A stretch of 64,000 nt of DNA from Nitrospirota bacterium. Its GTDB lineage: Bacteria > Nitrospirota > UBA9217. The position numbers were made by a program, and so were the translations under genes. The DNA lies in the NCBI GenBank assembly GCA_963737155.1, contig CAVTRN010000002.1, forward strand, positions 1 through 64,000, written 5' to 3'. Numbering within the stretch: position 1 is the first letter of the stretch; each line of letters opens with the position of its first letter. Under the pieces are notes generated by a model. It worked only from the letters and a program-made list of their open reading frames with translations. It did no database searches and was not told the origin of the DNA. Shown here piece by piece: positions 23,426 to 48,230 of this stretch.

Positions 23426-23446
23426 GTCGGGTTCATGACCCGAAGG
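23426..23446 (+). repeat. tRNA-fMet-derived site, copy A (anticodon arm only)
   Basis: GTCGGGTTCATGACCCGAAGG versus the typical tRNA-fMet GTCGGGCTCATAACCCGAAGG. Confidence 0.6.
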
Positions 23447-23504
23447 ATCCTTCGCGTAATCCACCTTAAGCGGTCCAAATGCCTTATCTCATCTGGTATT
23501 TTAT

Positions 23505-23533
23505 TTGACAACTGTCACGTGACGCGTTATAAT
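23505..23533 (+). promoter_or_regulatory. consensus sigma70 promoter of higBA with palindromic operator
   Basis: TTGACA-17 bp-TATAAT; the spacer contains GTCACGTGAC; the start codon is 7 nt downstream. Confidence 0.85.
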
Positions 23534-23540
23534 TTGCAAT

Positions 23541-23822
23541 GTGATAAAGACATTTTCTGATAAGCACACTTATGAGTTCTACGTGATCGGAAAATCCAAA
23601 CGTCTTCCGGCTGATTTACTGAAGCGTGCTATGCGGCGGCTGGAGTATATTAATCTTGCATCAACTGTAGATGACTTAAAGGTTCCTCCAAGCAACCGAC
23701 TTCATGCTTTGAAAGACGACCGTGAGGGTCAATACTCGATTTCAATCAACGACCAATGGCGCATTTGCTTTCGATTTAAAGACGGTGATGCTTACGATGT
23801 TGAAATAACCGATTATCATTGA
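23541..23822 (+). CDS. higB: HigB-family toxin
   Basis: MIKTFSDK...DLKVPPSNRLHALK.DREGQYSISINDQWRICF...VEITDYH. Confidence 0.92.
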   Translation: MIKTFSDKHTYEFYVIGKSKRLPADLLKRAMRRLEYINLASTVDDLKVPPSNRLHALKDDREGQYSISINDQWRICFRFKDGDAYDVEITDYH

Positions 23823-23832
23823 GAGGTGTATT

Positions 23833-24147
23833 ATGGCTGTCGCAAATACAGCTGTACGAATTGTAAAACCAACGCATCCGGGAGAAATGCTTCGTGAGGA
23901 TTTTATGCCTGATTACAGGCTTACCGCAACAAGTCTCGCCGAAGCTCTTGGCGTCTCCCGTCAAACGATCAATGAGATATTGCGTGAGCGCAGGGCTATT
24001 TCTCCGGCTATGGCACTGATGTTGTCTCGCCTTTTTGGCAACTCTCCTGAGTTCTGGCTCAATGCCCAGCGCACGGTGGACCTTTGGGAGGCAAAGAAGC
24101 ATCAGGAAAAGAAGCTTAGACGCATACAACCACTGACCGCTGCTTGA
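23833..24147 (+). CDS. higA: HigA-family antitoxin
   Basis: PTHPGEMLREDF...LAEALGVSRQTINEI...SPEFWLNAQ. Confidence 0.92.
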   Translation: MAVANTAVRIVKPTHPGEMLREDFMPDYRLTATSLAEALGVSRQTINEILRERRAISPAMALMLSRLFGNSPEFWLNAQRTVDLWEAKKHQEKKLRRIQPLTAA

Positions 24148-24233
24148 TACTCATTATTTTTTTGATCACCCACTTTCCCGACGACTGCGAGAACGAGTTC
24201 CTGCTGATCATACGAAGCCAAATTATAAAACTT

Positions 24234-24325
24234 TCAGGTTCATGACCCGAAGGGGTTGGAACGAGTTGCCAACTTTATCAAGGGATTACAGCATTTGCCG
24301 GAGCCCCTTTTTTTAACAGGACCGT
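24234..24325 (+). repeat. tRNA-fMet-derived att-like site, copy B (degenerate)
   Basis: GGTTCATGACCCGAAGG...CCAACTTTATCAAGGGATTACAGCATTTGC...CCCCTTTTTTTAACAGGAC. Confidence 0.7.
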
Positions 24326-24739
24326 ATCGGGATTGTCCCGCGGTTTAAGCCCTGACCTTCTGCTTAGCAGACCCTCATGACGGGCCCTCAAGCCCCTTCT
24401 GCTGGCCGGTCAACGCAGTTCTTCGCCCTGTTCCACCGCATAGCATATTCAAGTCCTGTAACCGGTAAAGTGTCGACTTTTCGCGCCCCCCATGACAGAT
24501 GACGGAAACAAGAGGCGAACAGTGACAATATTAATTATGGAAGACGCCGGCCGGAGTCATTAAAAAAGGAAATTCCGGATCTTTTATAAGGTTGACGGGC
24601 TGTTTCCCATGGCCACGCCCTCTGTGAGGTGCTCTGTCCAGGCCTCCAGGGTCAGGTGGGCAGGCCCGTTGTCTCTTGACTGAAGGGCGCGAACGGCATA
24701 TAATCAGAATATCAGAAATTCATATTTTCGGAGGTACCT

Positions 24740-25012
24740 ATGCCCACAGTCCGCATTCGTGAGCGCGGCCAGGTAACCATACCCTCTTCCTATCGGAAGG
24801 ACCTTGGCCTCGAAGAGAACGATTCCCTGAATGTGGTCAAGATCGATGAGATGCTCATCCTTACGCCGCGGAAACCCTTTGGCGACGCCGTGGCCAGGAA
24901 AGTCGAAGCCGGCATGAAGCACAAGGGGCTGACCCTCGACGACCTTCTGGACAATCTGAAAGAGCAGCGCAAAAGTTATACTCGTGAGGCCTATGGCAAA
25001 GTCAAAGCCTAA
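24740..25012 (+). CDS. AbrB/MazE-family antitoxin
   Basis: VRIRERGQVTIPSSYRKDLGL; TTGACT-17-TATAAT at 24676-24704. Confidence 0.9.
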   Translation: MPTVRIRERGQVTIPSSYRKDLGLEENDSLNVVKIDEMLILTPRKPFGDAVARKVEAGMKHKGLTLDDLLDNLKEQRKSYTREAYGKVKA

Positions 25013-25445
25013 AGTCTTTCTGGATACGAGCGCGCTCATCGCGGGGGTCGCCTCCTCAAAAGACGCAGCCCGCGAGGTCCTGCGTCTGGCGGAAATAGGG
25101 CTCATTGAGGCGATCGTGTCGCGCCAGGTGGTAGTAGAGGCCGACCGGAACATCACGGCGAAACTCCCTGAATGCCTCGATGACTTCCGTGCCTATGTGG
25201 AAACGCTTGCTCCAGTACTTATCGAAGACCCTTCTGCCAGAGACGTCAAACGGTTTTCCTTGCTTATCGATCCCGGCGATGCCCCGATCCTGGCTGCAGC
25301 GTCGGCGGCAAAGGCGGACTATCTCGTCACCTGGGACAGAAAGCATTTTATGACGAACGGGCCGCGGGCTCTCTCCCGTCCGAAAGTCATGACGCCGGGC
25401 GAGTTTCTGCAAGAATTCAGAACGTTGCTGAATGAGGGAGCATAA
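24993..25445 (+). CDS. PIN-domain (VapC-like) toxin
   Basis: VFLDTSALIA...DAPILAAA...ADYLVTWDRKHF. Confidence 0.9.
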   Translation: MAKSKPKVFLDTSALIAGVASSKDAAREVLRLAEIGLIEAIVSRQVVVEADRNITAKLPECLDDFRAYVETLAPVLIEDPSARDVKRFSLLIDPGDAPILAAASAAKADYLVTWDRKHFMTNGPRALSRPKVMTPGEFLQEFRTLLNEGA

Positions 25446-25719
25446 CATTGCTTCAGCTCTTATAAGAGAGACACTGTTTGCTTCATTTGCTGCTCCTCTT
25501 AGGAGCCATATTCGCGAACCCGATAGGGTAGCCCAATGTGTCCGGTCCGGACCGCCAGACGTATCAGGAAGTTGCCGCATGCGGAGGGGCCCCATTATTT
25601 TTATTAGGACGGAAGGCCCTGACCGGATTCCTCTCAAGGTTCGCTGAGGGAATATATCCAGTAGTAGAAAATGATAATGGATACTTGACTTATTCTTATG
25701 GATAGTATAGTATCCATGC

Positions 25720-26328
25720 ATGATCTTCCGCAACATACTAGAATCCGTCTTCGGCAGTCCTGCGAAAATCCGCATCCTTCGTGTTCTTTTTGCTTCTCCG
25801 CAACCCCTGAGCGGCAGGCAGGTAGGAGAGCTTGCGCGGCTCAGTCACCGGGGGGCAATTCAGGCGCTAGGCTCCCTAGTCGATCTCGGCGCGGTGCAGC
25901 AGCGGAGAGTCGGCAAAGCATATCAGTACTCCCTCGTGCGGAACAATGTGGCTGTTGAAAAGATCATTCTTCCTTGCATCCAGGCCGAAGCGTCTTTGAT
26001 CGATGGCCTCAAACTGGACATCAAAGCCCACTTTGGTCGAAATACAGTCAGTCTCACCCTCTATGGCAGTCTCGCTCGTGGCATGGGGAAAAAGGAGAGC
26101 GATATAGATGTTTTGGCAATTGCTCGGGATGGTAGAATAAAGACGCAACTAGAGGATAAGGCCGAGTCGCTTATTTCATTCTACCGGCAGCGTTATAATT
26201 CGCTCCTTTCCCTATATTGTCTTGCTCTTCCTGAACTGAAAGACAAAAAGACCTTGCCGTTGCTTCGGTCTATTCTGACGGAAGGCGTTACGATTTCGGG
26301 CAAACCACTTCGTGAATTATTGGCATGA
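25720..26328 (+). CDS. HTH + minimal nucleotidyltransferase (MNT) protein
   Basis: N-terminal HTH; LYGSLARG...SDIDVL. Confidence 0.88.
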   Translation: MIFRNILESVFGSPAKIRILRVLFASPQPLSGRQVGELARLSHRGAIQALGSLVDLGAVQQRRVGKAYQYSLVRNNVAVEKIILPCIQAEASLIDGLKLDIKAHFGRNTVSLTLYGSLARGMGKKESDIDVLAIARDGRIKTQLEDKAESLISFYRQRYNSLLSLYCLALPELKDKKTLPLLRSILTEGVTISGKPLRELLA

Positions 26329-26738
26329 CAAAAAAAAGGAAAACACGTTCTATCGACAAAAATGCGTATCGAGATTTCCTCGTCAAGGCGAAAGATTTTG
26401 CCTCCATGATGGATGTTTCGATTTCAGAGGGCAAATGGAACTCCGCTGGACTTCAGGCCGTTCATACCGTGATCTCCGCCAGCGACGCCGTGATCGCGTA
26501 CTACGGCGGGGTGAGGAACATCGAACTAGACCACAGGGAAGTTGTTGGCTTACTTCACGACATCGTAGGCGAGTCTGCGGCGGCAGCGGCAGCGGGCAGG
26601 CACGTTTCGCGGGTTATTGCAAAAAAGAATCTTGTTGAATATGAGGGCAGATCCATCACACAGTCAGACGCAAAGGAAATGGTGGAACACGCCAAGCGAT
26701 TTATTGAATGGGCGGTTGGGAACCTGCCGCATGAATAG
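26325..26738 (+). CDS. HEPN-domain protein
   Basis: WNSAGLQAVHTVISASDA...KNLVEYE; overlaps the MNT stop codon. Confidence 0.8.
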   Translation: MTKKRKTRSIDKNAYRDFLVKAKDFASMMDVSISEGKWNSAGLQAVHTVISASDAVIAYYGGVRNIELDHREVVGLLHDIVGESAAAAAAGRHVSRVIAKKNLVEYEGRSITQSDAKEMVEHAKRFIEWAVGNLPHE

Positions 26739-27022
26739 CTCTCCATCGTGAACCATTCGGGGGAAGTGCGTTTAACGCTCCTCACAGATGCACGTTAACC
26801 AGTAGTTTTTGCCTTTGTCACAAACTTGACACTACAACCTTGTTGAGCTCAACATTAGAAAACGGGCGAATACTTTACTTCGAGTTGAAAGTCACAAGTG
26901 CTAATATGCTTTCTATCCTGGAAACGAAGTATGAAAGAGCCCATAGGGTCTACAATCCGAAGGATTATGCACTGAACAATGAGGCCGGTGAGCTTTTATT
27001 TCCGACTGTTGCAAACAACCGG

Positions 27023-27262
27023 CTAAGCACTCTTTTGATGGCGAGAAGAGTACCAATCGACAAGCTGACGTATCATTTTTTGATATGATGTGTGATGCCT
27101 CTTGGCCTCTTTCTTAAAGAATTCAACACTCGACTTTTTTAGAGCAAGCGTTACCTTGACATTGTCTTCTCGAAGTGCCAACTGATCCGGTGATGGCAGA
27201 AAATCGTTTATCACTTTCAATTTACCCATCGGCTCATCGGTGTATTTAATTTTGTTCTTCAT
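27023..27262 (-). CDS. BrnA/CopG-type antitoxin
   Basis: MKNKIKYTDEP...DFLPSPDQL...KVTLAL...YQKMIRQLVD. Confidence 0.8.
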   Translation of the reverse strand: MKNKIKYTDEPMGKLKVINDFLPSPDQLALREDNVKVTLALKKSSVEFFKKEAKRHHTSYQKMIRQLVDWYSSRHQKSA

Positions 27263-27523
27263 ATATTTTTCTTCCTTTCCTCCAATATCCAGCACCCTAT
27301 ATGCGGATAACACTTCCTCGAAACGTAAATCTAACAGTCATGATTCCTTGCCAACACGTCCGATGCAATAAAATCTATTCTCCGCGGCGCTATGCTCCAA
27401 GTCCTCCACGATGACACGGTGAGGGTCGAGAAAAGCATGTTGTGCAAGCGAAAAAGACACATTATGCTTTCTTTGATGTTCCTTGTCTTTTACCTCATCC
27501 CATGCAAAGTGGGTTTTCTTCAT
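27236..27523 (-). pseudogene. brnT: BrnT-family toxin, frameshifted
   Basis: FAWDEVKD...KHNVSF...EHSAAENRFYCIG; the C-terminal IMTVRFT...IRI..GAGYWRKG part lies in another frame. Confidence 0.75.
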
Positions 27524-27795
27524 TGCGTTATCTTATCACAAGAACGGCCTTATTGCAAAATTAATATATGGCAAGAAGTATGGTAAAATATATGGGAAGA
27601 ATAGGGCACTGCAAACGGCTGCTCGTGATATTTATAAGCGAGGAATCAATTATTTGCCTATTGGCGGCCGGTTTTCTAAGCCGAATGCCGGGTGTCCAAG
27701 GGAGAAAAAGCGTAAAATCTGATGAATCCCTTCAGAATGCCGGCGGTAGCCTAGGGGGAAATGCGCCAGGAAGCGAATACGAGATGAGTCACTTG

Positions 27796-27884
27796 GGTTT
27801 GTAACCAGGAGTCGTCGGTTCAAATCCGGCCCCCGCTACAAATCAATTCTTAGGGTTACGGCAGCTGCTGTAGCCCTTTTTTTA
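27796..27884 (+). repeat. tRNA-fMet-derived att-like site, copy C
   Basis: GTCGTCGGTTCAAATCCGGCCCCCGCTAC followed by hairpin AGGGTTACGGC...GCTGTAGCCCT and a T-run. Confidence 0.85.
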
Positions 27885-28310
27885 TCCCCCCTGTTAAACT
27901 GTTAGAAGGTGAGGAGGGGATACTGACTTCTTTTAATAAGAGAAATCAGATAGATGAAAGAGTAGCAGGTACGGTCTTTAGCGGAGACTGCCCGAGGGTA
28001 CGCCCCGCAGTTATTTTACCGAGCTGAGATTTGGGTTATTGGCAAAAAGATACTACTAAAAGCACCCATGTCATTCTTAAGTTTTCAGTTCAATATTCCC
28101 CTGGTGAGGATAACATAACAGTTCTGAAAAAAGATAATTTAAGTGCTATCCTTAAAAAGGAGATAATCTATCTCGCTTAAATTATTACGTAATTCGATGT
28201 ATCACATGGGAGGTTACTTTGATAGTTTATTGAGCAATGTTCTTGCCTACCATGCGTGAAGAGAAAGTTGTGCCGACTCAGGGGAGAAAAGGTGTTCATA
28301 ATAAAGCCAT

Positions 28311-30182
28311 ATGCATGAGATGATAGATACCGGAATAATGAAAAAACCACTTCGTATACTCCTTGTCTCTGATAACGTCGATGATAACGCACGAACAGTC
28401 CAGGAATTGAACAAAGAGTTTGTCGCGCAGGTGACCGAGATCAGAGACGAAGCAGGACTGGATAAAGCTCTGGATTCAGGTCCCTTCGATATCGTCATAA
28501 CTGATTACCACCCTGGACTACCTGTTCTGAAAAAAATGAAGTCACGCTATCCTGCATGTCCTGTAATCGAATGCACCACGAACGGAAGCGAAACAGTCGC
28601 GGCGGAGGCGATGAAAATCGGTGCACATGACTTTATTGTGAAATCTCCATCGCTCTGGGAGCAGATAAACGAGCTGGTACGATCTGCGCTTATAAAGGGA
28701 GCGGAGAGCCAGGCTCGCAGACGGGCGGAGGAAGCTCTCAAGGCAAGCGAGGAGAAGTATCGTCTTCTGTTCGAGACGGCGAGGGACGTTCTCATATTCC
28801 TGGACAGGGATGGCGACGTCGTTGATATCAACCCGCATGGAGAAAAGCTTCTCGGCTACTCACGCTCCGATTTGATGCGGCTAAACGCCATTAAGGAGCT
28901 AGTTATTCCGGAAGACCAGCATGTTGTCCGCAATCTGATCCAGAGGGCAATAGAAGGCCTGAATTCGACCTATGAGGTCCATTATCGAACGAAAGAAGGG
29001 AAGATCGTCTCTTTTGATGGAGTAACCGTTCCACTAACATCCTCAAATGGAGAATTTTTATCGACCTTCTGCACCCTGCGGGACATAACCGACCGAAAAC
29101 TTGTCGAAGAGAAGTTGCGCCAGAGTGAACACGACCTTGCAGAGGCGCAAAGGATGGCAGGGCTGGGCAACTGGAGATTTGACATCATGGCTAATACCGT
29201 GAGATGGTCGGAAGAGCTTTACCGGATTTTTGATGTCGAAAAGACAGAGTTTGGTGGCTTATATGAGTCTTTCCTAGACCGTGTTTATCCTGACGACAAG
29301 TCGCTGGTGCTAGAGAAGAACAGAATAGCCAGAGAAAAAGGAGAACCCTTCGAGGTCGAATATCGCATCGTGACACAAGCCGGTCAGCTGAAATATATAA
29401 GGGAGGTCGGATATGCTATAAAGGACGCCACGGGCAGGGTTGTTGGCTTGTTCGGAACCGCTCAGGACATCAGCATCCGCAAGAAGGTTGAGGAAGAGCT
29501 CCGCTCCTATCAGGATGCTCTCCGTGCCCTGGCCTCGGAACTGGCCATTGTCGAAGAGCGTGAGCGGCACCGTATCGCGACGGACTTGCATGACAATATC
29601 GGTCAGGCCCTGGCGATTGCGAATATAAAAATGGGGGCACTGAGGGAATATACGAAAGTCCCGGAGGTTACCGCTGCCGTGGATGAGATCCGCAGGCTCA
29701 TAGAGGATGCCATCGGATACACGAGGTCCCTCACCTTCGAACTGAGCCCGCCCATCCTGTACGAACTGGGCCTCATACCTGCCTTGTCATGGCTCGCGGA
29801 GCAGTTCCAAGACCAGCACGGCATCCCAATCGAGGTCAGTGACGACGAAAGACCAAAGCCTATGGACGAGGAAATGCAGATCACGCTTTTCAAGGTGGTG
29901 AAGGAATTATTGATGAACATTGTGAAGCATGCTAAGGCGCGAAAAGCGGTCATATCTCTCCACAGGGAGGCCGGATCGATACGGATCACAGTCGAGGACG
30001 ACGGCATGGGCTTCGATACCTCTGCTCTTAAGACCCCCAAGACCGGCGGGTTTGGCCTCTTCAACATCCGGGAGCAGCTCCACTTTATCGGGGGCAGCCT
30101 TGAGATTGATTCAGCGCCACTCAGCGGGACTAAGGTCACTATTGTTGCGCCCTGCTGCCTTGACGAGCCGGCAAGAACATGA
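28311..30182 (+). CDS. REC-PAS-PAS sensor histidine kinase (HisKA_3)
   Basis: ERHRIATDLHDNIGQ, NIVKHA, VEDDGMGF, GFGL. Confidence 0.92.
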   Translation: MHEMIDTGIMKKPLRILLVSDNVDDNARTVQELNKEFVAQVTEIRDEAGLDKALDSGPFDIVITDYHPGLPVLKKMKSRYPACPVIECTTNGSETVAAEAMKIGAHDFIVKSPSLWEQINELVRSALIKGAESQARRRAEEALKASEEKYRLLFETARDVLIFLDRDGDVVDINPHGEKLLGYSRSDLMRLNAIKELVIPEDQHVVRNLIQRAIEGLNSTYEVHYRTKEGKIVSFDGVTVPLTSSNGEFLSTFCTLRDITDRKLVEEKLRQSEHDLAEAQRMAGLGNWRFDIMANTVRWSEELYRIFDVEKTEFGGLYESFLDRVYPDDKSLVLEKNRIAREKGEPFEVEYRIVTQAGQLKYIREVGYAIKDATGRVVGLFGTAQDISIRKKVEEELRSYQDALRALASELAIVEERERHRIATDLHDNIGQALAIANIKMGALREYTKVPEVTAAVDEIRRLIEDAIGYTRSLTFELSPPILYELGLIPALSWLAEQFQDQHGIPIEVSDDERPKPMDEEMQITLFKVVKELLMNIVKHAKARKAVISLHREAGSIRITVEDDGMGFDTSALKTPKTGGFGLFNIREQLHFIGGSLEIDSAPLSGTKVTIVAPCCLDEPART

Positions 30183-30187
30183 GACCT

Positions 30188-30841
30188 ATGAAAATAAAAA
30201 TTCTACTGGCGGACGATCATAAGATCGTACGTGAAGGCTTGAGCACGCTCATCGAAAAGCAGAGCGATATGGAGGTCATGGCCGAGGTTGAGGATGGGCG
30301 TGCGGCGGTACATCTTGCCCGGAAGCTCTCACCGGATGTGGTTATCATGGACATCGGCATGCCAGGGCTGAATGGTATCGAGGCCACTCGCCAGATCTGC
30401 AGGGAACTCCCGGGTACTAAGGTTATTGCACTGTCCATGCATGCTGATAAGCGGTTTGTGATCGAAATGCTGAATGCCGGTGCAGAGGGCTATTTGCTGA
30501 AAAGTTCGGCTTTTGAGGAACTGGTACATGCCGTCCATGCCGTAATGGCGCAGAAATCATATGTGAGTCCGCCACTAGCTGGTATCCTGGTGAAGTACTC
30601 CCGTCGCCCTTTACCCAAAAAAGAATTCTCGGTTTTCTCCATTCTTACCAGACGGGAACGAGAAGTGCTTCAGCTTGTAGCTGAAGGGAACTGCACGAAG
30701 GAGATCGCCGACCGCCTCCATGTTAGCGTCAAGACTATCGAAACCCACCGCCTGCAGATCATGAAAAAATTGGAGATCTACAGCATCGCAGAATTGACCA
30801 AGTTCGCCATCCGGGAAGGCCTCACCTCAGTCAATGCTTGA
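30188..30841 (+). CDS. NarL/LuxR-family response regulator
   Basis: ILLADDH, MDIGMP, LTRREREVLQL...SVKTIETHR. Confidence 0.95.
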   Translation: MKIKILLADDHKIVREGLSTLIEKQSDMEVMAEVEDGRAAVHLARKLSPDVVIMDIGMPGLNGIEATRQICRELPGTKVIALSMHADKRFVIEMLNAGAEGYLLKSSAFEELVHAVHAVMAQKSYVSPPLAGILVKYSRRPLPKKEFSVFSILTRREREVLQLVAEGNCTKEIADRLHVSVKTIETHRLQIMKKLEIYSIAELTKFAIREGLTSVNA

Positions 30842-31192
30842 TCTTATGCTTGGATCCCCCGTCCCAGGGTCAGTTCCAAAAATCAGGGAATCCCCTATAG
30901 TTTTTCCTGCATGTCCCGCTAATATAAAGAATATCTTTTCATTCCTGAATGCGCTTCCTCTAGACATCTATATGATTGCATTATAATTCGTATTCCGCAG
31001 CTCATTTAACCAAGCGATGGTTGTAGGTGGGCTTCGGAGCGCAGTGTTCACGAGACAATTGACGGCTACCATTAGAAGTTTTCAGCCAAGCATGTATGCA
31101 GTATCTAATATTTAATAATATCGATCAGGCCACACATTGTGCGGTAAAAAGAGACTCTCTTTAAAGCGAAGGTTGGGTTCAGTGGAGATTAG

Positions 31193-37790: not shown

Positions 37791-37799
37791 GTTGTCCTC

Positions 37800-38788: not shown

Positions 38789-39428
38789 CAAATATTCCTC
38801 TCCTCTATTATTAAAATACGACACAGCACTGTTTAGCAAAGTTAAGTTATAAGTTAAGTCGCTTCAGGGTTAAGTGTGGGAGCCCTAATATGTTGATATA
38901 AGCTGTTTTCGCACTGAAAGGGGTAACTGATCGATAATGCAAGGCTTTCCACCTTAACTGCTGGGGTTTATTCTTTTTCCTCTATTCTACATTTTGGTGC
39001 TTCCCACACTCGTTCCGGAAGGGCCTAAGTTAATAGTATGTTGATTTCTTATACATCATAAATTATATAAAAACTATTAGAGATATTCAATCTCCCGTTT
39101 CAGCTTTCACCCATTTCGGTTAATTATTGAAAGGTTTTACTCTTTCTCGTCGCCCAATGGCGGCATGTTTAATGGTTGGAGTAACAACATGTATAATAAA
39201 ATTAGAGTCCTGTTTCTGTACACTCGATTAAGTAAATTCGTGTAGCGAATTCTGGTGGTCCATTCCTTTTTTACAAGGACTGAACTCAACACGCGGGCCT
39301 GTCGGTAAAAAACGCAAGACGTTCAAACATGATATAATATTGCAGAGTACAATCAATAATAACTAAAAGCTATCTTTGAAAACCATAAGTCATAATTAAT
39401 CGACAGGAACGAGTTTATTCGCCGGCAA

Positions 39429-39981: not shown

Positions 39982-41667
39982 ATGCGGTTGCCCTTTTTTC
40001 AGGGAATCATTCCCATCAAAGGTTCGCAGGCGCTGACGGATATCATAGCCGGTCTCACGCTGGCCGCCCTCGCCATTCCCGAGGTGATGGGCTACACGAA
40101 AATATCCGGGACCCCCGTAATCACCGGCCTCTACACCATCCTCATCCCGATGACTCTATTCGCACTTTTCGGCTCATCCCGTCACCTTGTCGTCGGTGCC
40201 GACTCTGCGACGGCGGCTATTCTTGCCGGTACTCTCACCGGGATGGCCGTGATCGGGTCGGCTCAGTGGCTTGCGCTGGCTGAAGTCCTGGCGGCTCTGT
40301 CGGCCGGTTTGCTGATCATCGCCCGTATCATTCGCCTGGGGTTCCTTGCGGATTTTCTGTCTCGAACGGTGCTCATCGGGTTTTTGTCAGGTGTAGGCGT
40401 TCAGGTCGCTCTTGATGAAATCTCGACCATGTTAGGGCTTCCGGGAGGAGGGCATGGTCCAATCCAAAAGATCGTTAACGATCTTCATCAGGTCAAACAG
40501 ACGAATTTCTACGCCCTGGGTGTCTCCCTGGCCGTGCTTGCGGTTATCACCGGATCAAAAAAGATTTCAAAAAAGATCCCTGGTGCGTTGATCGCAGTAA
40601 CAGCAGCCATTGTCTCCAGCTCGGCGCTCAATCTTGAAGCTCACGGCGCACATGTGCTTGGCGCAGTTCCGAGCGGCCTGCCAGCGATCGGACTGCCTGA
40701 TGTGCATTGGGATACCGGCCTTATTTTGAAATTGCTTCCCACCGCGTTCGCCATGTTCGTGGTGATCCTGGCCCAGAGCGCGGCGACATCCCGCGTCTAT
40801 GCAACTCGCTACAACGAACGATTCAGCGAAAACGTGGATTTGGTGGGCCTGGGCCTTGCTAATGTTGGCGCCGCGCTGAGCGGGACTTTTGTTGTGAATG
40901 GAAGCCCTACCAAGACTCAAATGGTCGATAGTGCCGGCGGTCGCAGTCAGCTCGCCCAGATTACTGCAAGCTTCATTGTCCTTCTAGTGCTGCTTTTCCT
41001 GACGGGTCCGCTGGCCAGCATGCCAATTGCCGCCCTCTCCGCGGTAGTTTTCCTGATAGGCGTTGAATTGATCGATGTCAAAGGGATGCGGAAGATCTGG
41101 GTACAACGCCCGCCGGAATTCTGGGTGGCGTTGATCACGGCTATCGCGGTGATTGTAGTCGGTGTCGAGCAGGGTATTCTCCTTGCGATGGTACTGTCAC
41201 TCATAGAGCACGTGCGGCGAAGCTACCGATGTAAGAACGCCGTACTCGCACCTGACGAGAAGGGTGGCTGGCGGGCGTTGCCGGTGGCCACTCCTGAACA
41301 AGTCCGGCCCGGCCTACTACTATATAGCTTCAGTCATACTATGTACTATGCAAACGCCGAACAGCTCTCGACAGAGGTTGTCGAACTTGCAAAGGGGGCT
41401 CAGCCTCCCCTGATCTGGTTCTGTATCGACGCGTCGGCGGTTGCAGATGTTGATTTCACTGCGGCATCAACTATTCGCGACATCTACGGCATCTTAGAGA
41501 AGGAGGGCATCCGGCTTGTGTTTTCCGAAGTTATTGACCCCGTCAAGGCTGAGTTGGACAGATATGAGCTTACCGACCTGTTTGGGAAAGATGCCTTTTA
41601 CGATACAATCAATGCAGTAGTAAGTGCATATGACAATAGGTCTGCAGGCAACCAAGACAGGAAATGA
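39982..41667 (+). CDS. SulP-family anion transporter with STAS domain
   Basis: DIIAGLTLAALAIPEVMGY, FGSSRHLVVG, C-terminal IDASAVADVDFTAA. Confidence 0.95.
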   Translation: MRLPFFQGIIPIKGSQALTDIIAGLTLAALAIPEVMGYTKISGTPVITGLYTILIPMTLFALFGSSRHLVVGADSATAAILAGTLTGMAVIGSAQWLALAEVLAALSAGLLIIARIIRLGFLADFLSRTVLIGFLSGVGVQVALDEISTMLGLPGGGHGPIQKIVNDLHQVKQTNFYALGVSLAVLAVITGSKKISKKIPGALIAVTAAIVSSSALNLEAHGAHVLGAVPSGLPAIGLPDVHWDTGLILKLLPTAFAMFVVILAQSAATSRVYATRYNERFSENVDLVGLGLANVGAALSGTFVVNGSPTKTQMVDSAGGRSQLAQITASFIVLLVLLFLTGPLASMPIAALSAVVFLIGVELIDVKGMRKIWVQRPPEFWVALITAIAVIVVGVEQGILLAMVLSLIEHVRRSYRCKNAVLAPDEKGGWRALPVATPEQVRPGLLLYSFSHTMYYANAEQLSTEVVELAKGAQPPLIWFCIDASAVADVDFTAASTIRDIYGILEKEGIRLVFSEVIDPVKAELDRYELTDLFGKDAFYDTINAVVSAYDNRSAGNQDRK

Positions 41668-41716
41668 GCAAGTTCGTCCAGCGGATTTGGAGTTTGTCTC
41701 ATTAGCTGATTTGAGA

Positions 41717-42508
41717 TTAATTCTTACTGGAAGGACGGTTCACAAAGTCTTCGATTACGTGGCGCAATCGAATAATTTCTTCTTGGATGTCTTGAAGCGA
41801 CTTCTGACGTGCAATTTCTGTATTTTGATCTTTGGTGACTCGATCAATGAAAAATGTCGCAATGAGGGCAGTGAGATACCCAAAAACCGCTATCGCGTAG
41901 ACAGATATGGCGAGACATAGAATGCGCCCGCCGGTCGTTTTTATTGGATAGCCGCTACCGATGTTCGTTATCTGCATGGCCGTCCACCAAAGAGCATTCG
42001 GATATGTGTGAATACTTTGAGGATCATCGGAGATTCTCTCAAAATGGAGCATCCCGGCTGCACCAGCGAAGATCACCACAAGGGTGAATGTGAGCACATA
42101 AGCGGCACCGCGGCGTCCGAAGGAACGACGAATAGAACTCATGCCCTGTTCCGCTGATGCGAAAATCCAGATCACCTGCATTCCGAAAGTCGCAGTCAGA
42201 GCACGTACCAGCGGGAAGGAATTCATGAAGGGGAAAAATCGCAGTACAGAGGCAAGAATCGCTAAAACAAAGAGCCAATTCCTTTTGAAAAAAGCTTTCT
42301 GATCGTCAACAGTCGCCAGACGCACGGCGAAATAAAAAATAAATAAAATCCAAATGCCTGTGCCACAATAAGATATCACGGGATTTGTGCTGTAGACGAG
42401 CTCGGTGATTAGTATGCAGAGCCAGACAAAACTGAGAAATAACATCGGCAGTTCGAGTATTTTCTCCAGAGCTAAAAGCTTCGGGTATTTTGGCGTATTG
42501 AGAGTCAT
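41717..42508 (-). CDS. voltage-gated potassium-channel-like ion transporter
   Basis: Six TM segments; ALWWTAMQITNIGSGYPIKTTGGR pore region with a non-canonical filter. Confidence 0.8.
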   Translation of the reverse strand: MTLNTPKYPKLLALEKILELPMLFLSFVWLCILITELVYSTNPVISYCGTGIWILFIFYFAVRLATVDDQKAFFKRNWLFVLAILASVLRFFPFMNSFPLVRALTATFGMQVIWIFASAEQGMSSIRRSFGRRGAAYVLTFTLVVIFAGAAGMLHFERISDDPQSIHTYPNALWWTAMQITNIGSGYPIKTTGGRILCLAISVYAIAVFGYLTALIATFFIDRVTKDQNTEIARQKSLQDIQEEIIRLRHVIEDFVNRPSSKN

Positions 42509-42900
42509 CAGCCCCCCTATTTTGCGGCGAGAGGATTGTTTGTCTTTCATGGCCGCATTATATTTGCAAAGGATCTTAGCAAAATCTACAGCGAGACAGA
42601 CAATTGCATTCTCAGACCCTAGAGTGCACGCTATGGTATGAAACATCACCAGATTGCAAAAGCCACTTGTGATCAGACTGTAGGATGGACCAATGCGCGT
42701 ATCCGGCGCTTCTGTTGAAAAATAATGCTTCGAACGCCTCCGTGTGAATGCTCCACCATAGCCCCGGTAGTAACAATAAGTTTTAGTGAACTTGCCTCTG
42801 ATATGTCCTTAATTATATCAATTATTAATCGCTTATGCTCCGGCCGATTTTTTGGCATACAGTCAAAGTATTTTATCATGCTTAGATTTATAAAACAGTC

Positions 42901-43035
42901 CTGAAATACCCAGCAGCTTGCTGCTGGGATGAAAAGGACATCCTGGCGAAGCCAGGATAAGTCTTCAGCTTCTTTGTTGTGCTTTTTTAAGGTTTCAAGT
43001 TCCGATGCCCCGCAGCTTGCTGCGGGGTAATTCAC
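42901..43035. mobile_element. 135-bp non-autonomous IS200/IS605-type element
   Basis: Two terminal palindromes CCCAGCAGCTTGCTGCTGGG and CCCCGCAGCTTGCTGCGGGG with no transposase between them. Confidence 0.65.
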
Positions 43036-43655
43036 TCTCTTTCATGTGCGTAAGTCCCATCATTGTAATGCACAGTTTGGAAATTACTGCAGCTGAAAAT
43101 ACGTAAACTATAAACACCTGGACAAATCCCAGAATAATCTGGCCGACAACATATCTGTCTAGACATATAACGTTCATCTTGTCGTTCTCTACACCTTGAT
43201 GGGCGGAAATGTATCGTCAAAATTCGACATTTGAATTTATTGATTGCTTTTTCGAAGCATTATTAATAATTAGCTTGCCGCAGAACTATCCAATATAAAT
43301 TTCGAGTAATACAGAGGTGCATCAATCGGATAAAGTAGGCTTGTCAAATACTACTTTATCTAAAAAAGGATATTCCCGAGAACAAGTTTAACAGTATTTT
43401 TCGGAAAGATTATGCGTATATTTTCGCAGTAGGATTTTATAAGAGCGGCTAGGGAAACATGAGCAGAATAAATGCATAAATAATTTGAGCGTTTGGCCAG
43501 CTTGTAGCGATTTAGTGCTGGCAAGAAGAACTCATTTTAACGTAAACATAATTGAAACAGCACCCAAAATTAACTCCATGATTGACAGAAGTATTCTCCA
43601 TTGCTATTGATAATTGCCAATTGGTAAGATATAATGGCAATTATTGGAGGCGGGC

Positions 43656-43919
43656 ATGAAAACAACGCTGGACCGTTTCGGACGAGTAGTGATCCCCAAG
43701 GACATCCGGGATCGGCTGGGATTACGGCCGGGGGCGGAAATTGAGATTGACGAGAAAGGCAATGAGGTCGTGCTGAAACCCGTTGAACACGAACCCCCGC
43801 TCAGGGTGAAAGAGGGCATCCTTGTTTTCTCAGGGTCAGCGACCGGAGATATCAGGGGCGCTGTTCGGGCGCATCGTGAAGAACGGCTGAGACAGGCTGC
43901 GTCCGGAAAGAAATCATGA
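43656..43919 (+). CDS. AbrB/MazE-family antitoxin
   Basis: MKTTLDRFGRVVIPKDIRDRLGL.PG. Confidence 0.92.
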   Translation: MKTTLDRFGRVVIPKDIRDRLGLRPGAEIEIDEKGNEVVLKPVEHEPPLRVKEGILVFSGSATGDIRGAVRAHREERLRQAASGKKS

Positions 43920-44350
43920 AAGCGCTGCTCGACACCTCGGTGCTCGTAGCCGCACTCGTGGAGCCGCACCCAGAGCATCTGCGCGCGCTTCCGTGGCTTG
44001 CAAAGGCGAAATCGAGGTCAACTGAACTGGTGATATCCTCTCACACCATCGCCGAACTCTACGCCGTGCTCACAACCCTGCCGGTCAGTCCGAGGATCAC
44101 ACCGGGTTTTGCATGGCGGCTTATCCACGAAAGTATTGAGCCTCATGTTTCTATCGTGTCACTCACATCCTCCGAATATATTGCAACCGTCAGACACCTG
44201 AGCGAAATAGGGCTTTCCGGAGGCGCTGTTTATGACGCTCTCATCGTGAAGGCTGCGCAGAAGGCCGAGGCCGATCGCATAGTGACCTTTAACGTGAACG
44301 ATTTTAAACGTGTCTGGCCCGAAGGTGCGAGCGATATCGTCGCGCCATGA
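43916..44350 (+). CDS. PIN-domain (VapC-like) toxin
   Basis: LLDTSVLVAA...GGAVYDALI...IVTFN..DF. Confidence 0.92.
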   Translation: MKALLDTSVLVAALVEPHPEHLRALPWLAKAKSRSTELVISSHTIAELYAVLTTLPVSPRITPGFAWRLIHESIEPHVSIVSLTSSEYIATVRHLSEIGLSGGAVYDALIVKAAQKAEADRIVTFNVNDFKRVWPEGASDIVAP

Positions 44351-44723
44351 ACACGCGCTGTGTAAGCGCTTACGTAACGGCCTGTAAGAGATTTGTGTCA
44401 CATAAAGCGTCTCCACATCATCAACTATAGGGTCATCTTCGTCGATGAATGAAACGTTGTGCTCGTTTACGAAGTAAAGCATAGACAGGAGGCATACTGT
44501 GATTAAGTCACAGATCGTGAAAGAAAACGACAAACCGGTGGACTGCGGTGTCTATCTATGGGAGTCTGTAAATGGATGGTAGGATTCTTACAGCATTTTT
44601 AGCATCCGAGCGATTTGACTGACGAAAGACAGGAGATCAGAAATGCCGTAAATCGGTTGAATAAAGTCATTAGTCGCGAGTATTAATATCCGGCTCACCC
44701 TGGAAGCGAAGCTTAAAAGATCC

Positions 44724-44820
44724 TTGGTGTCTGCAACCCGAAGGTCGTCGGTTCAAATCCGGCTCCCGCTAGCAAACTTATCATGAGGTTACAGCATTTG
44801 CTGTACCCCTATTCTTTTTT
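44724..44820 (+). repeat. tRNA-fMet-derived att-like site, copy G
   Basis: AACCCGAAGGTCGTCGGTTCAAATCCGGCTCCCGCTAGCA, then TATCATGAGGTTACAGCATTTGCTGTAC. Confidence 0.88.
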
Positions 44821-44974
44821 AACATCCTGTCTCGCGTCCTGCCAATAAAACGCATTTGTGTATGATAAGCTCTTGAATTGTTTGGGACGGGAAAGGGGAG
44901 ACATTGAGCATGAATGAGGGAGCCCACCCGAAGAGGGTTTTCCCGATACAGACGGTTTTGTCGGCGAGGTAGCT

Positions 44975-45220
44975 TTATGAATTAACATTGAGGGTCTGGA
45001 GCTGGGTGACCTCCTGTTTAAAATATCGAGGAAGACCGCTTAAAATTGCGTCAAGTATGTCTGCAACTCGGGGGAACTTTCCTTTTACGGCTGCCAGCCG
45101 TTTCTTGTCGCGTCCGCAGACGATGACCGTGCTGCCGCGCCCGTGAAACGCCTCGGCAATGTCGAGACCGATGCCGCTGGTGCCTCTTGTTGCGAGAACG
45201 GATCTGCCCGATAGTTTCAT
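44975..45220 (-). pseudogene. short-chain dehydrogenase N-terminal remnant
   Basis: SVLATRGTSGIGLDIA...VIVCGRD Rossmann start, truncated. Confidence 0.7.
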
Positions 45221-45274
45221 GGCAGCTCCTCATCAAAGGCATGATGGCTGATAAGGTCCTTCGCTGATTCTCTT

Positions 45275-45790
45275 TTAAATCAACGGCAACAGGCTGCTGA
45301 AGTCATTATTAATCCCCATCATCTCTAAATAAAGAGAAAGCATGCCCCGATGATGGGTTTGGTGATTAAATATATGCAAAATGGAACCCCCGACATTTTT
45401 ACTGACCGTCTCCCCTCTCATATTCGCAAATGATAATGTCTTATCCAGATCGTTTTCCGTAAGCTCATCCATAAGCATGATTAGTTTTTTATCCAGTTCA
45501 TCTCTTTTAGAAAGGTAGTCAACAACGGCAACGAAAGGCTGCGAACCATAGGTTAAGTTCTGATCGAAAAGGGGATCTTTAAAATATTGAAAATCCCTGA
45601 ATTGGCCGAACCTTTTGAGCCAGCTGAAATCACTGATATAAATATGGCCGCACAGGTGCTCCATGGTCTTGAAGTATCCCGCTAACTCCCGGTTCCACTG
45701 CGTGTTACTTAACGTGCGAATTTTGTCAGCCATTTTTTGATTTGCAACCAGATTATACTGCGCCAACAACTTGCATGTCTTGATATCCAT
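45275..45790 (-). CDS. DinB-family protein
   Basis: LAQYN..ANQ, HIYISD, HIFNHQTHHRG. Confidence 0.88.
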   Translation of the reverse strand: MDIKTCKLLAQYNLVANQKMADKIRTLSNTQWNRELAGYFKTMEHLCGHIYISDFSWLKRFGQFRDFQYFKDPLFDQNLTYGSQPFVAVVDYLSKRDELDKKLIMLMDELTENDLDKTLSFANMRGETVSKNVGGSILHIFNHQTHHRGMLSLYLEMMGINNDFSSLLPLI

Positions 45791-46551
45791 ATAACCTCCT
45801 GATCCGTGATAGGGGGACAGGAACGACCTTAATTCTTATTGTTTCCACTACTATAGAGTCATCGATCAGAAATCGTGTACCCGTTGCTATATAGTTTAGC
45901 AGAAAAAGATGCCATGATTGATCTGATGTATGATCGGATCTCAGCATGATTGGAAATTATCAGATTTTGCGGCCCAGAAAACAGACAGTGGCAGCCCCAC
46001 GGCGCAGAAAAGGCCGTCCGCATGCAAGCGCTTGCCTTAATACAAGCAATCAAGCCCATATCAGGGGGTAGCTTCCATTTACAACGGCGGGCTCTATGTA
46101 GCGAGCATCAGCAGTTTTGTATATGTGATCGACCGCAGAGGGGATAAAATGTAGTTGACGGGAAGATACGAATAGAAAAAATAGATTATCAGTGATTTTT
46201 TTGGTGAGGATGGAAAAAAGTTGAACCCTCATGGGATTGCTACCGCGACATTTTGAGTCTCGGTTGTATGCCAGTTCCACCACATCCCCGGCTAATTTTT
46301 TAGCCAAATTTTAGCGAGGTTTTTAAAGCAGAGCGTTACTGACCGGTTTTGAAAGGGAAATAATTCTTAGACGCAGAAGACCTCAACGGATATTGAGTCC
46401 TCTTTAAAAGTATATGGGGGAGAAAATCCAGGGCAGTCCGTAAGATTCCTTAGGGGGGAGACTACCTTAAGTGGTCAGGAAATGCATCTTTCCGCGAATC
46501 TCAAGGCTCTCAATCCTTGACATATGTAATCAATTGTAGTACATTGTATAC

Positions 46552-47049
46552 ATGAAGATTGTATTTGATTCTTCTGCGCTTATTCTACTAGCAAAAACAG
46601 ATCTGCTTCGGGAAGTGGCGAAACAGGTTGTTATAATTATTTCAGAAGATGTAAAGAGAGAATGCCTGGTAAAAAAGACTCCTGACGCGGAACTCGTTTC
46701 CCTTCTTATTCAAGAGGGAAAGATCATCGTGCAGGAAGCAGTTGATGCCAAGGCAATCAAGAAACTCCAGATGGATTTTCGGATTGCAAAAGCAGAGGCG
46801 GAGGCGGTTTGGTTGGCTAAAAAATATGAACTTCCAATAGCCATTGACGACGGGCCGGGAATAAAGGCGAGCAAAGTGCTTGGACTGCGGTTTTTAACGG
46901 CAATACACTTCCTGCTTCGCCTTTCATCTCACAATAAACTGTCACCGGAATTGGCGCAGGAAAAACTTACGAAATTGGCCCAGATGGGGAGATACAACAC
47001 GAGAATCATCGAAGATGCGATGAACCGGTTGAAAGAGGGGAGAGAATAA
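46552..47049 (+). CDS. PIN-like (DUF3368-type) protein
   Basis: MKIVFDSSALILLAK...AEAEAV.LA...IDD. Confidence 0.85.
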   Translation: MKIVFDSSALILLAKTDLLREVAKQVVIIISEDVKRECLVKKTPDAELVSLLIQEGKIIVQEAVDAKAIKKLQMDFRIAKAEAEAVWLAKKYELPIAIDDGPGIKASKVLGLRFLTAIHFLLRLSSHNKLSPELAQEKLTKLAQMGRYNTRIIEDAMNRLKEGRE

Positions 47050-47051
47050 CT

Positions 47052-47336
47052 ATGGGTGTAATAAGTTTACGGCTTGAGAATTCAGAGTTGCGGCGCATCG
47101 ATGATCTTTCCAGCCAGGAGCATAAGGGACGATCGACGATTGCCCGTGAGCTTATTCAACAGGGCTTGCAGTTTCGGATGATAAAACAGTACCGGGAGGG
47201 GAAGCTGTCCCTGGGAATCCTGGCAAAGAGCCTTGATGTCTCGATCGGCGAGGCAATCGATATGCTGGCCGAGTTCGGGATAGAATCGCCTGTTGAGTAT
47301 GAAGATTATCTCAAGGGTTTGGATGTTAAGTGGTAA
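47052..47336 (+). CDS. UPF0175-family putative antitoxin
   Basis: RHH-like start plus YREGKLSLG.LAKSLDVS. Confidence 0.85.
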   Translation: MGVISLRLENSELRRIDDLSSQEHKGRSTIARELIQQGLQFRMIKQYREGKLSLGILAKSLDVSIGEAIDMLAEFGIESPVEYEDYLKGLDVKW

Positions 47337-47344
47337 TTATTTTG

Positions 47345-47826
47345 TGATGTTTCATTAATCATACCTTCACGTCGGTTACCGGTCCTGATCCTGACCACTT
47401 CGTTGGTGAGTTTAGATACATAACGTTCGGCATGTCTGCGATGGGCAGAGTGCTTGTGATTATTCATGCCGACGCAAAAGACACAATCAGAATAATGAGT
47501 GGTCGTGTGGCGAGCAAAGGAGAACGAAAGCTTTATGAAGAAGAACAAACCATCATCTCAAAATGAACTTTGTGAGGAGTACAGGCGAGCGGATTTCACC
47601 GGCCCGCTGGTACGAGGTAAGTATGACCACCCGGTTGCGCGAGGCATCGAACATCATTGTCCTGAAACCAGATGTTGCGGCGGTATTTCCTAACGGAGAA
47701 GCAGTCAATAAAGCCTTGCAATCCCTGATCGCAGTTGCTCGAGCAACGACGAGTCTGAAAAAGCGGCCAAGCGTGCGCGACAATAAAGTCGGTCTGCCTA
47801 GCCTCGTGTTTCAAATAGTAAGATAG
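47345..47826 (+). pseudogene. decayed BrnT/BrnA-like pair
   Basis: PDPDHFVGEFRYITFGMS..GRVLVIIH...IRIMSGRVASKGERKLYEE, then a frameshifted MKKNK...VRGKY / VLKPDVAAVFPN.EAVNKAL. Confidence 0.7.
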
Positions 47827-48112
47827 CGCAGTTAAGAAAATCGCAATTCAATGGTTATTTCTTCAGACCTCTTCGATGCCTACCTTAACTGCCCATCCAA
47901 GTGGCGGTTCCGTTTTAAAAATGAAGTGGCTACTGGCATATGTATTCTCAGGTCCACACAGGACGTGTGGAATTCATTTATTCTGGTCAAGACAGGATAT
48001 GTGTGGAGTACGTGTGTATGTCCGCACATAATGTGCGGATAGTGTTGAGATATTAAATTATATATGAAAATCATACGTAAAATTTTGTGAAAAAAGGCGC
48101 TCAAAGAGCCCG

Positions 48113-48230
48113 CCCGACGGTCAGAGGTTCAAAATCCGGCCCCGTCGCCAAACGTATCAGGAGGTTACCGTATTTACTGCAGCCCCTTTTTTTATCAGGA
48201 CAGTAACAAGACAGCTACAGGAAAGTTCGA
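48113..48230 (+). repeat. tRNA-fMet-derived att-like site, copy H
   Basis: CCCGACGGTCAGAGGTTCAAAATCCGGCCCCGTCGCCA, TATCAGGAGGTTA, T-run, then CAGGACAG/CAAGACAG. Confidence 0.82.

Follow-up and report, generated by a model that had tools for sequence, protein, structure and literature searches.

A tRNA-fMet-anchored array of attachment-like sites that bound small, integrase-less cassettes in a soil Nitrospirota genome

The stretch analysed here (the window) comprises the first 64,000 nucleotides of contig C2 (C2:1–64000) in a soil Nitrospirota genome, G000, whose assembly consists of two contigs, C1 and C2. Between about 22 and 48 kb it carries co-oriented fragments of the initiator tRNA gene, tRNA-fMet, that separate small gene modules, mostly toxin–antitoxin (TA) operons, and the question raised by this locus is what these fragments are and how the modules came to lie between them. 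A first-pass annotation had proposed an integron-like platform, in which tRNA-derived sites replace attC and a recombinase acts in trans. The results point to another answer: the fragments are probably attachment (att) junctions produced by serial tyrosine-integrase insertion at a single tRNA-fMet gene, and the DNA between them consists of integrase-less cassettes, similar to cis-mobilizable elements (CIMEs), which were gathered by tandem accretion. Among the papers listed in literature searches, none dealt with tRNA-fMet arrays in Nitrospirota.

The eight tRNA-fMet 3′ fragments listed by the first-pass annotation were all present at their positions on the + strand. A 25-nt word of the T-arm and acceptor, searched with up to three mismatches, occurred at 27817, 35452, 37026, and 44750 on the + strand, while none of 100 shuffled sequences contained a match. 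Repeat finding revealed a 79-nt family of six copies (27802, 35437, 37011, 37211, 44735, and 48111), a 62-nt tail family that added a copy at 24265, and a 20-nt family joining 23427, 24234, and 37001. The 45 nt at 37006–37050 matched exactly the final 45 nt of the intact tRNA-fMet gene, and, as had been described, the 5′ half of the tRNA was absent from every copy; the sites derive from tRNA-fMet positions ~27–77 plus a tail. No intact tRNA-fMet was detected in the window by ARAGORN or by Rfam at gathering thresholds, and Rfam gave no match of any kind there. Four further co-oriented sites, at ~22335, 25500–25633, 26943–26965, and 44921–44934, were recognised in alignments, which brings the co-oriented sites in the 22.3–48.2 kb interval to 12. 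The intervening segments were free of PF00589, PF00239, and PF07508 matches, which upheld the earlier statement that they have no integrase of their own: no tyrosine or serine recombinase, even a decayed one, was found in them.

The intact gene was located on the other contig, where the sole initiator-type tRNA-Met of G000 occupies C1:66303–66379 (− strand) and is followed by the same tail as the fragments. Thirty-one genomes, G000 and 30 relatives, were searched for the site, and 25 of them had a match. Tail-including matches numbered 23 in G001, 21 in G011, and six in G014, which are well-assembled members of the genus, and five in G016, which belongs to a different genus. In G011, 13 co-oriented fragments extend across 258 kb downstream of the intact gene (C3:519522–519598), to 777.6 kb, and in G014 the gene heads four co-oriented fragments on one contig, the tRNA-like part of which is more decayed with growing distance from the gene; in G001, the intact gene and the arrays lie on separate contigs. 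At least 14 of the 16 exact-pattern loci belonged to records of Nitrospirota or Nitrospiraceae metagenome-assembled genomes (MAGs), and a pattern scan of viral contigs for the site in phages or satellites gave 0 matches. In three relatives, a tyrosine integrase gene is convergent with the intact tRNA-fMet and abuts its tail. The integrase of locus L059 (355 aa) has its stop codon inside the tail hairpin region; that of G010:C100, whose C-terminus abuts the tRNA, is 61% identical to the C-terminus of the L059 integrase, and that of G002:C86 is a 429-aa frame located 108 nt past the site and ~30% identical to the integrases on C1 of G000. The view of the first-pass annotation that the fragments are tRNA-fMet-derived att sites is thus borne out by the intact gene that heads the arrays in G011 and G014 and by the integrases that adjoin it in three relatives.

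Two peculiarities were noticed among these loci. A contig recorded as an Alphaproteobacteria MAG (L068) contains four co-oriented sites within 2.3 kb (4291–6555), with an x-PIN pair between the first two, and is either mis-binned or reflects transfer beyond the phylum. A second tRNA-fMet-like copy without the tail is located 4–27 kb upstream of the tailed gene in G001 (C8:499635–499709), G011 (C3:492792–492867), and G014 (C17, ~112189); it has a 4-base anticodon according to ARAGORN in G011, is not called by ARAGORN in G014, and is absent from G000.

The structure of the sites was examined in 69 copies extracted across genomes, which form the basis of the counts of tails, T-arms, and integration host factor (IHF) words. 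The tail is composed of a TATCA word, a GGGGTTACAGC...GCTGTAACCCC hairpin, and a T-run. In 42 copies from five genomes, 90.9% of the hairpin cells were paired and double-sided changes occurred in 15 cells, a value equalled by none of 500 shuffles, while slid controls were paired in only 36–52%; the site hairpins at 27852 and 35488 were also the top terminator-like matches. CAGGAC boxes were seen in four window copies (24308, 35524, 37296–37324, and 48196), so the hairpin, T-run, and boxes were as first described, and the IHF word WATCAANNNNTTR was indeed matched by the two copies (B and D) for which it had been claimed, at 24234 and 35437, and by 20 of the 69 sites overall. At least four tail families can be distinguished, and three of them carry direct repeats spaced 11 nt apart. 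Types A, B, and C have two or three such repeats: family A is defined by two or three ATCAGGACAG boxes (repeat CAGGACAG), family B by the same box inverted, and family C by repeated GGGCCGGT, while family D has another word. The sequence that follows the intact gene varies likewise: a type-A tail is found there in G000 and G014, a type-B tail in G001, and a type-C tail in G011. Differing tail types between genomes and 11-nt repeats are what would be expected if the tail were the right arm of the last-integrated element, and we infer that it is, the repeats being putative arm-type integrase binding sites. The left arms or flanks also form families.

The tRNA-like cores themselves appear recombinant. 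Among the 69 sites, three have the chimeric T-arm AGAGG/CCGGC (all in the window), five have GAAGG/CCGGC, and six carry the paired variant AGAGG/CCTCT. One left arm was found with different right halves, that is, with the chimera in G000 (35422) and with the paired variant in G011 (658415), which indicates at least one crossover in or just past the T-loop.

The next question was whether the segments between the sites behave as units. The MNT-HEPN module of the window is 96% identical to G011:C3:524645–525984, in both genomes it borders directly on a site at the right, and on the left the homology starts exactly at the tail edge of the window site. Homology of the higBA module with G001, G003, and G010 begins at 23498–23500, and in G001 it ends inside a site. 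The DinB gene is 88–90% identical to copies in other species and the pair of the 165-aa and UPF0175-like genes 90%, while the syntenic flank shows just 75–79% identity to a relative. Cassette order varies between genomes, and each of the four inter-site segments of up to 1.5 kb tested in relatives contained one TA operon. The sites coincide, as these homology edges confirm, with breakpoints of gene content in relatives. The first-pass annotation had itself named three outcomes that would speak against it, namely decayed integrases within segments, a repeat scattered without relation to cargo boundaries, and breakpoints elsewhere than at the sites; none was obtained outright, and the repeat, which does extend beyond the window, still lies at module boundaries there. 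Sequencing data were available as contigs from seven soil metagenome runs, each covering at most 0.22 of the sampled words, and uncovered stretches in them carry no meaning; runs X2–X4 yielded short pieces only. In run X1, a contig of 1164 nt (depth 5.45) connected 47277–48108 via ACTACCCGAAG, 11 site-like letters, to 44935–45258, and both ends of this back-joint are site cores. An excised circle or a tandem copy would give such a junction, and a different cassette order is equally possible. Another joint, a 250-nt skip in run X3 (40916/41167), was discarded, its shorter side of 24 letters being too weak for use.

These data can be accommodated in a model of serial insertion. The attP of an incoming element would replace the 3′ part of the tRNA together with the terminator hairpin and the downstream arm, and the former 3′ part would be pushed downstream. 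Each internal site would consequently join three pieces: a left arm from one element, a tRNA-like core in the middle, and a right arm that belongs to the older neighbour. The small segments are single TA operons, each of which has a promoter of its own on the left and is bounded on the right by the terminator hairpin of the next site. The window cassettes are bounded by two-armed sites, and each is without a recombinase match; they are most likely non-autonomous CIME-like elements. It is plausible that integrases act on them in trans: enzymes of autonomous elements targeting the same tRNA might insert, excise, and shuffle the cassettes, and candidate suppliers are the integrases that follow the intact tRNA in relatives and the two intact arm-type integrases on C1. 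Addiction to the TA modules would favour the retention of the cassettes.

The recombinase genes of G000 and its relatives were surveyed with regard to this model. A six-frame PF00589 scan of G000 gave 12 matches, none between C2:15760 and C2:1050776; none of the 16 resolvase matches found genome-wide lay in the window, and large serine recombinases gave 0 matches in the genome. PF00589 matches were rare within the arrays of relatives, too: none was found on G014:C17, just two in the 62–450 kb region of G001:C1, both copies of a multi-copy 295-aa gene, and in the G011:C3 array one copy of a multi-copy 313-aa gene and one integrase disrupted by an insertion sequence (IS) into two fragments (527–530 kb). 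The disrupted integrase was considered as the enzyme of the array and rejected, as its type is not systematically near sites and shows no relationship to the L059 integrase; G000 contains no close homologue of it, the best match there being an Xer-like frame (E 3.2e-7). Two intact integrases with arm-binding domains are encoded at C1:23760–26392 in G000, which also has two fragments, and tandem CAGGAC or GGGCCGG boxes were not found near the intact ones. In the window, a fragment of an arm-type tyrosine integrase at 13288–13743 (+), with 71% identity to the 426-aa C1 integrase and one internal TAA, is convergent with a decayed site remnant, a tail hairpin, at 13818–13900 (−). The 13.3–13.9 kb part of the window is a decayed version of the arrangement, first the site and then the integrase, that relatives show at the intact tRNA.

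The first-pass annotation had named two proteins of 799 and 849 aa as possible recombinases of the platform. They are encoded by a co-directional three-gene module (310/849/799 aa) at 14939–20808 (−), of which only the 799-aa protein has a tyrosine-recombinase domain (residues 527–653). The 799/849-aa pair was present in two of the five genomes searched, G000 and G014. Neither protein was found in G001 (23 site matches) or G011 (21 site matches); the G014 pair (28–31% identical) lies on C22 near two further integrases, while the array is on C17. The role assigned to these proteins was dropped on this distribution, and the trio, which is separate from the array, probably represents a mobile element of an uncharacterised kind that has large tyrosine recombinases. 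A whole-genome six-frame search with the integron integrase model TIGR02249 gave nine matches, all below the 265-bit cut-off; the best of them (88.7 bits) was a 325-aa Xer-like open frame at C2:2368742–2369542, and the 799-aa, 426-aa, and 398-aa proteins scored 24–25 bits or had no match. Two other recombinase loci were met in this survey. A resolvase-domain gene of 175–198 aa is present in eleven copies in G000 (nine of exactly 192 aa) within a 1.3-kb repeat, for example at C2:184491, C2:234831, and C1:1754397, and one copy is 5 kb from the end of C1; we take it to be an IS607-like element. At C2:2985266–2985690, a decayed integrase with stop codons, 41% identical to the L059 type, lies beside tRNA-Glu, followed by a hairpin tail that resembles the tRNA-fMet tail, and judging from this arrangement a related element family formerly used tRNA-Glu.

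How these results bear on the competing explanations has to be weighed with the points that speak against serial insertion of CIME-like cassettes. No recombinase could be tied to action on the sites: an unfiltered nhmmer search to E 50 found no site beside the intact C1 integrases, and searches of G001 and G011 gave no member of that integrase family despite the large arrays there. Many window sites are decayed or truncated and incapable of present activity, module boundaries outnumber the recognisable sites (around SulP, at 46028/46504, and at 47346), and the crossover signals conflict, the chimeric T-arms pointing to the T-loop and the partial sites to a break after CCCGAAGG. The back-joint comes from one contig of one run and from a relative with 3–4% other letters. 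The disrupted integrase of G011, 1.1 kb past the second site, is what pure decay would predict. Indeed, the array could be a fossil, a possibility that we consider real, if doubtful: autonomous integrase-bearing islands would have inserted at the tRNA, their integrases and most of the cargo would have been deleted, and the TA operons and a few useful genes would survive since their loss is counter-selected, so that the cassettes never moved as units and are now immobile. Integrase-bearing elements that use tRNA-fMet in relatives, the G011 integrase just mentioned, the integrase fragment beside the site remnant at 13.3–13.9 kb, the state of the window sites, and the decay that rises with distance from the gene in G014 all agree with such a history. 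It accounts poorly for the rarity of PF00589 inside arrays in which unselected sites of 100 nt stay recognisable, for minimal cargo that still has both arms, and for the shuffled cassette order between genomes; nor would it lead one to expect cassettes that are 88–96% identical between species against a flank of 75–79%, or a back-joint exactly at two site cores.

Two further explanations fit the data far less well. That the site is a dispersed tRNA-derived repeat, either like a miniature inverted-repeat transposable element (MITE) or a short interspersed nuclear element or a portable terminator, spread by transposition or duplication, intergenic by chance and not an att site, is very unlikely: copies do occur out to 1.59 Mb, three of 22 are inverted, and the hairpin with its T-run is terminator-like with conserved pairing, but the arrays are headed by and co-oriented with the intact gene, integrases abut that gene in three relatives, the tail families have arm-like repeats and vary by genome after it, chimeric cores are present, homology breaks at site edges, and no target-site duplications were seen. 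Still more improbable is a true integron-like platform, in which a resident 799/849-aa recombinase would capture cassettes at tRNA-derived stand-ins for attC. The tyrosine-recombinase domain of the 799-aa protein and the position of its module, 1.5–2.6 kb left of the first partial sites (~22335 and 23427), gave this idea its appeal; it fails on the two-of-five distribution of the proteins, not found in the array-rich G001 and G011, on the lack of an integron-integrase match at the cut-off, and on the G011 and G014 arrays, which begin at a tRNA gene rather than a recombinase gene. The integron comparison of the first-pass annotation was given up also because the sites are conserved in sequence and the entry site is the intact tRNA-fMet gene. 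Serial insertion at tRNA-fMet, which we prefer, can be extended to a bolder proposal, put forward tentatively and as the less likely case: the arrays might be an independently evolved functional analogue of a chromosomal integron, in which minimal circular cassettes of one operon, usually a TA pair with its own promoter, and one complete attP-like site are captured, excised, and reordered in trans by one or more integrases with genes elsewhere, insert at the tRNA gene and also at displaced sites of the array, use several arm families on one target, and form a pool of addiction and defence modules exchanged among soil Nitrospirota species. Insertion at displaced sites would account for the young, perfect site in the middle of the array (37003) and for partial sites without the 3′ part of the tRNA.

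The array is part of a larger island. An iterated nhmmer profile found 22 fragment sites on C2, 19 on the + and three on the − strand, of which eight are in the window; those outside it lie at 67, 150, 183, 204, 261, 306, 307, 315, 336, 420, 586, 629, 798, and 1594 kb. Two short partial sites follow the intact gene downstream on C1, at 60.3 and 46.2 kb. The array first described at 23–48 kb is accordingly real, but it is not confined to that interval. On a single contig of G011, a block like C1:85–88 kb, the tRNA, the array, and a 20-kb block collinear with C2:281–301 kb follow one another, and from this synteny we infer that the reverse complement of C1 would join C2:1, which would place the window array ~90–115 kb downstream of tRNA-fMet on the same strand. 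GC skew, which fits either orientation of C1, and the repeats at the contig ends gave no decision on the join. The island probably measures ~350 kb, starting at tRNA-fMet (C1:66303–66379) and crossing the contig junction into C2, and the window contains its densest part. The portion nearest to the intact tRNA (C1:26–60 kb) carries genes of the defence type, which encode an EcoRII endonuclease, a NERD-UvrD helicase, an AAA_15/AAA_21 ATPase, DUF2326, and a helicase with a partner carrying the MrfA Zn-binding domain; a scan of island genes showed none for conjugation. At C1:46150–46200 (−), a partial tRNA-fMet site is joined directly to a sequence that, read on the other strand, resembles the T-arm of another tRNA (GGTTCGATTCC) and may be the remnant of a different tRNA target.

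The individual sites of the window, all on the + strand, are preserved to very different degrees. A partial site ending in ...GAGACTACCCGAAG was identified by alignment at 22335–22348, left of the Phd-ParE cassette, and the first copy of the first-pass annotation (23427–23446) consists of the 20-nt anticodon-arm word alone. The site at 24200–24340 has a decayed T-arm and a type-A tail with CAGGAC boxes. A complete yet decayed site at 25500–25633, absent from the first-pass list, was supported by repeat finding, profile, and alignment, while the partial site at 26915–26965 retains an alpha-type left arm and the anticodon arm and, compared with its paralog at C2:66949, has lost 23 nt internally. 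The site at 27760–27981 has a type-D tail and is 91% identical over 180 nt to C2:182783–182964 (−). At 35395–35545, a chimeric T-arm (AGAGG-TTCAAAT-CCGGC) is followed by a type-A tail, and the left arm plus site are 84% identical to G011:C3:658320–658534, the T-arm of which is the paired variant. The youngest-looking site (36996–37190) consists of the 45-nt 3′ part of the tRNA and a type-B tail, ~135 nt long, in which the CAGGAC boxes are inverted; it adjoins a site (37191–37330) that combines a gamma-type left arm with a chimeric T-arm and a type-A tail, and the two enclose a cargo-less unit of ~200 bp in which a right arm is fused to a left arm, an arrangement found in G011 as well (597669–597976). 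An alpha-type left arm and a type-B tail characterise the site at 44672–44904, next to which a partial site with a gamma-type left arm and CCCACCCGAAGAGGG (44905–44934) leads into cargo. The last site (48096–48232) has a chimeric T-arm and a type-A tail with three CAGGAC-like boxes. Partial sites that break after CCCGAAGG recur in the window and on C1 and may represent deletions or a second crossover position. Separately, ARAGORN called an 88-nt ‘tRNA-Phe (aaa)’ at 46202–46289 (−), which had no Rfam tRNA match at the gathering score; it sits between two modules, 45072–46028 and 46504–47346, that are found separately in relatives, and may be another decayed attachment remnant.

With the additional sites, each TA pair in the 22.4–27.8 kb region becomes a separate cassette. 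These are Phd-ParE (22436–23078, +), which is 86% identical to a cassette between sites in G001:C11; higBA (23505–24147, +), with a 12/12 promoter-like site at the left edge; MazE/AbrB-PIN (24676–25445, +), with an 11/12 promoter-like site and a 95.5% identical paralog at C2:64383–65183; MNT-HEPN (25634–26963, +); and a BrnTA-type cassette (27023–27523, −), formed by a truncated BrnT of 61 aa and a neighbouring small open reading frame (ORF). The three best promoter-like matches near TA cassettes were located at left edges (23505, 24676, and 25685). Further to the right lie a four-gene two-component signalling cluster of PAS/GAF histidine kinases and response regulators (28311–35178, +), ORFs without a family match (35603–36892, +), a pair of Gp49-like killer and HI1420-type antidote genes (37491–38090, −), a SulP sulfate permease gene (+) and an ion-channel gene (−) with no recognisable border site (39982–42649), a MazE/AbrB-PIN pair of the VapC type (43644–44350, +), a cassette with DinB, a 165-aa ORF, and a UPF0175-like ORF (44935–48108), and a BrnT-CopG cassette (48353–48974, +), which is 90% identical to G001:C1:157567–158188, likewise located after a site. 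Pfam confirmed the cargo first listed as higBA, MazE/AbrB-PIN, MNT-HEPN, the four signalling genes, Gp49/HI1420, SulP, the ion channel, MazE-PIN, and DinB. Other assignments needed revision: of the BrnTA pair, BrnT is present, on the − strand and truncated; the ‘NTase pair’ (35603–36892) had no Pfam or NCBIfam match; and ‘PIN-UPF0175’ retained a sub-threshold UPF0175 match, its PIN partner being unconfirmed. Among other repeats, a 150-nt sequence at 42887–43036, between the ion-channel gene and the MazE-PIN pair, is present in more than 20 copies of 99–100% identity on both contigs and looks like a MITE. Three tandem units of ~267 nt, 94–96% alike, overlap an ORF with a heavy-metal-associated domain (−) at 38138–38803 and have relatives at C2:487 kb and C2:762 kb. 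Just beyond the window, C2:64075–65183 is a rearranged duplicate in which the MazE-PIN module (95.5%) stands head-to-head with an inverted start of the MNT gene (95%), the junction corresponding to the left boundaries of both cassettes.

If the cassettes move as units, the arrays would collect genes in the manner of an integron with nothing but ordinary tRNA-integrase components. They would show that cassette arrays can arise by a second route, and would offer a natural system in which to follow the mobilisation of integrase-less modules in trans and the colonisation and stabilising of arrays by TA genes. Even conservatively, a single tRNA-fMet-anchored island of defence and TA genes makes up ~5–7% of the genome in an uncultured soil Nitrospirota genus, and its att architecture can be read clearly, from the left arm through the tRNA half and the terminator to the arm repeats, which form several specificity families. 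Software for the detection of islands, which usually presupposes an integrase in each of them, can benefit from this.

Sedentary chromosomal integrons contain long co-oriented arrays of small cassettes, many of them TA pairs, with a recombination site at the border of each and no recombinase within the cassettes, and their attC sites are imperfect palindromes conserved in structure and not in sequence. The Nitrospirota locus resembles them in its co-oriented array of small recombinase-free cassettes (12 sites at 22.3–48.2 kb). In contrast to integrons, it has no IntI, is entered at a tRNA gene instead of an attI, and has cassettes that bear their own promoter-like sites; unlike attC, its sites are sequence-conserved tRNA derivatives with arms, and their sole helix is a near-perfect terminator-like hairpin.

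By analogy, and to the extent that these systems are described in the accounts cited here, the closest known match appears to be tandem accretion with cis-mobilizable elements (PMC5704250). According to that account, streptococcal CIMEs keep attL and attR, have lost the genes of integration and transfer, and occur in tandem at the 3′ end of a target gene, where the integrase of a neighbour could move them; the tandems it describes comprise two or three elements derived from decayed integrative and conjugative elements (PMC5704250). The Nitrospirota arrays differ from these in having a dozen sites within 26 kb and more than 20 per genome, and in cassettes that often hold one operon. Very close, too, are the Dehalococcoides ssrA islands, which, as presented in PMC3146451, stand in tandem and have direct repeats of the tmRNA gene's 3′ end at their borders. 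That gene is single-copy, and the repeats, over a dozen and 20 bp in length, are all found downstream of it and within 100 kb, with an inferred insertion point in the T-loop and conservation that reaches past the minimal repeat (PMC3146451). Sixteen of those islands have a serine integrase, 15 are without an integration module and were suggested to be cis-mobilizable, and the cargo is rdhA (PMC3146451). As outlined there, they share with the present locus the 3′-end repeats downstream of one small-RNA gene and the islands without an integrase, whereas the Nitrospirota site measures ~150–200 nt (arms, tRNA half, and terminator) against 20 bp, the integrases are of the tyrosine type and nearly absent from the arrays, the cargo is mostly single TA operons of 0.8–1.5 kb, and the arrays span 250–350 kb. 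Tycheposon islands of Prochlorococcus, as characterised in 10.1101/2020.12.28.424599, grow by serial insertions at one tRNA that push older elements inward, and they contain scattered partial tRNAs and fragmented integrases. Older elements pushed inward and scattered partial tRNAs are common to both systems on that description, while the host is here a soil Nitrospirota MAG, the target an initiator tRNA, and the cargo mainly TA and defence genes. What is distinctive of the Nitrospirota locus is the combination of dense single-operon TA cassettes with complete, two-armed sites, the near-absence of integrases over 250–350 kb, and several arm families on the initiator tRNA.

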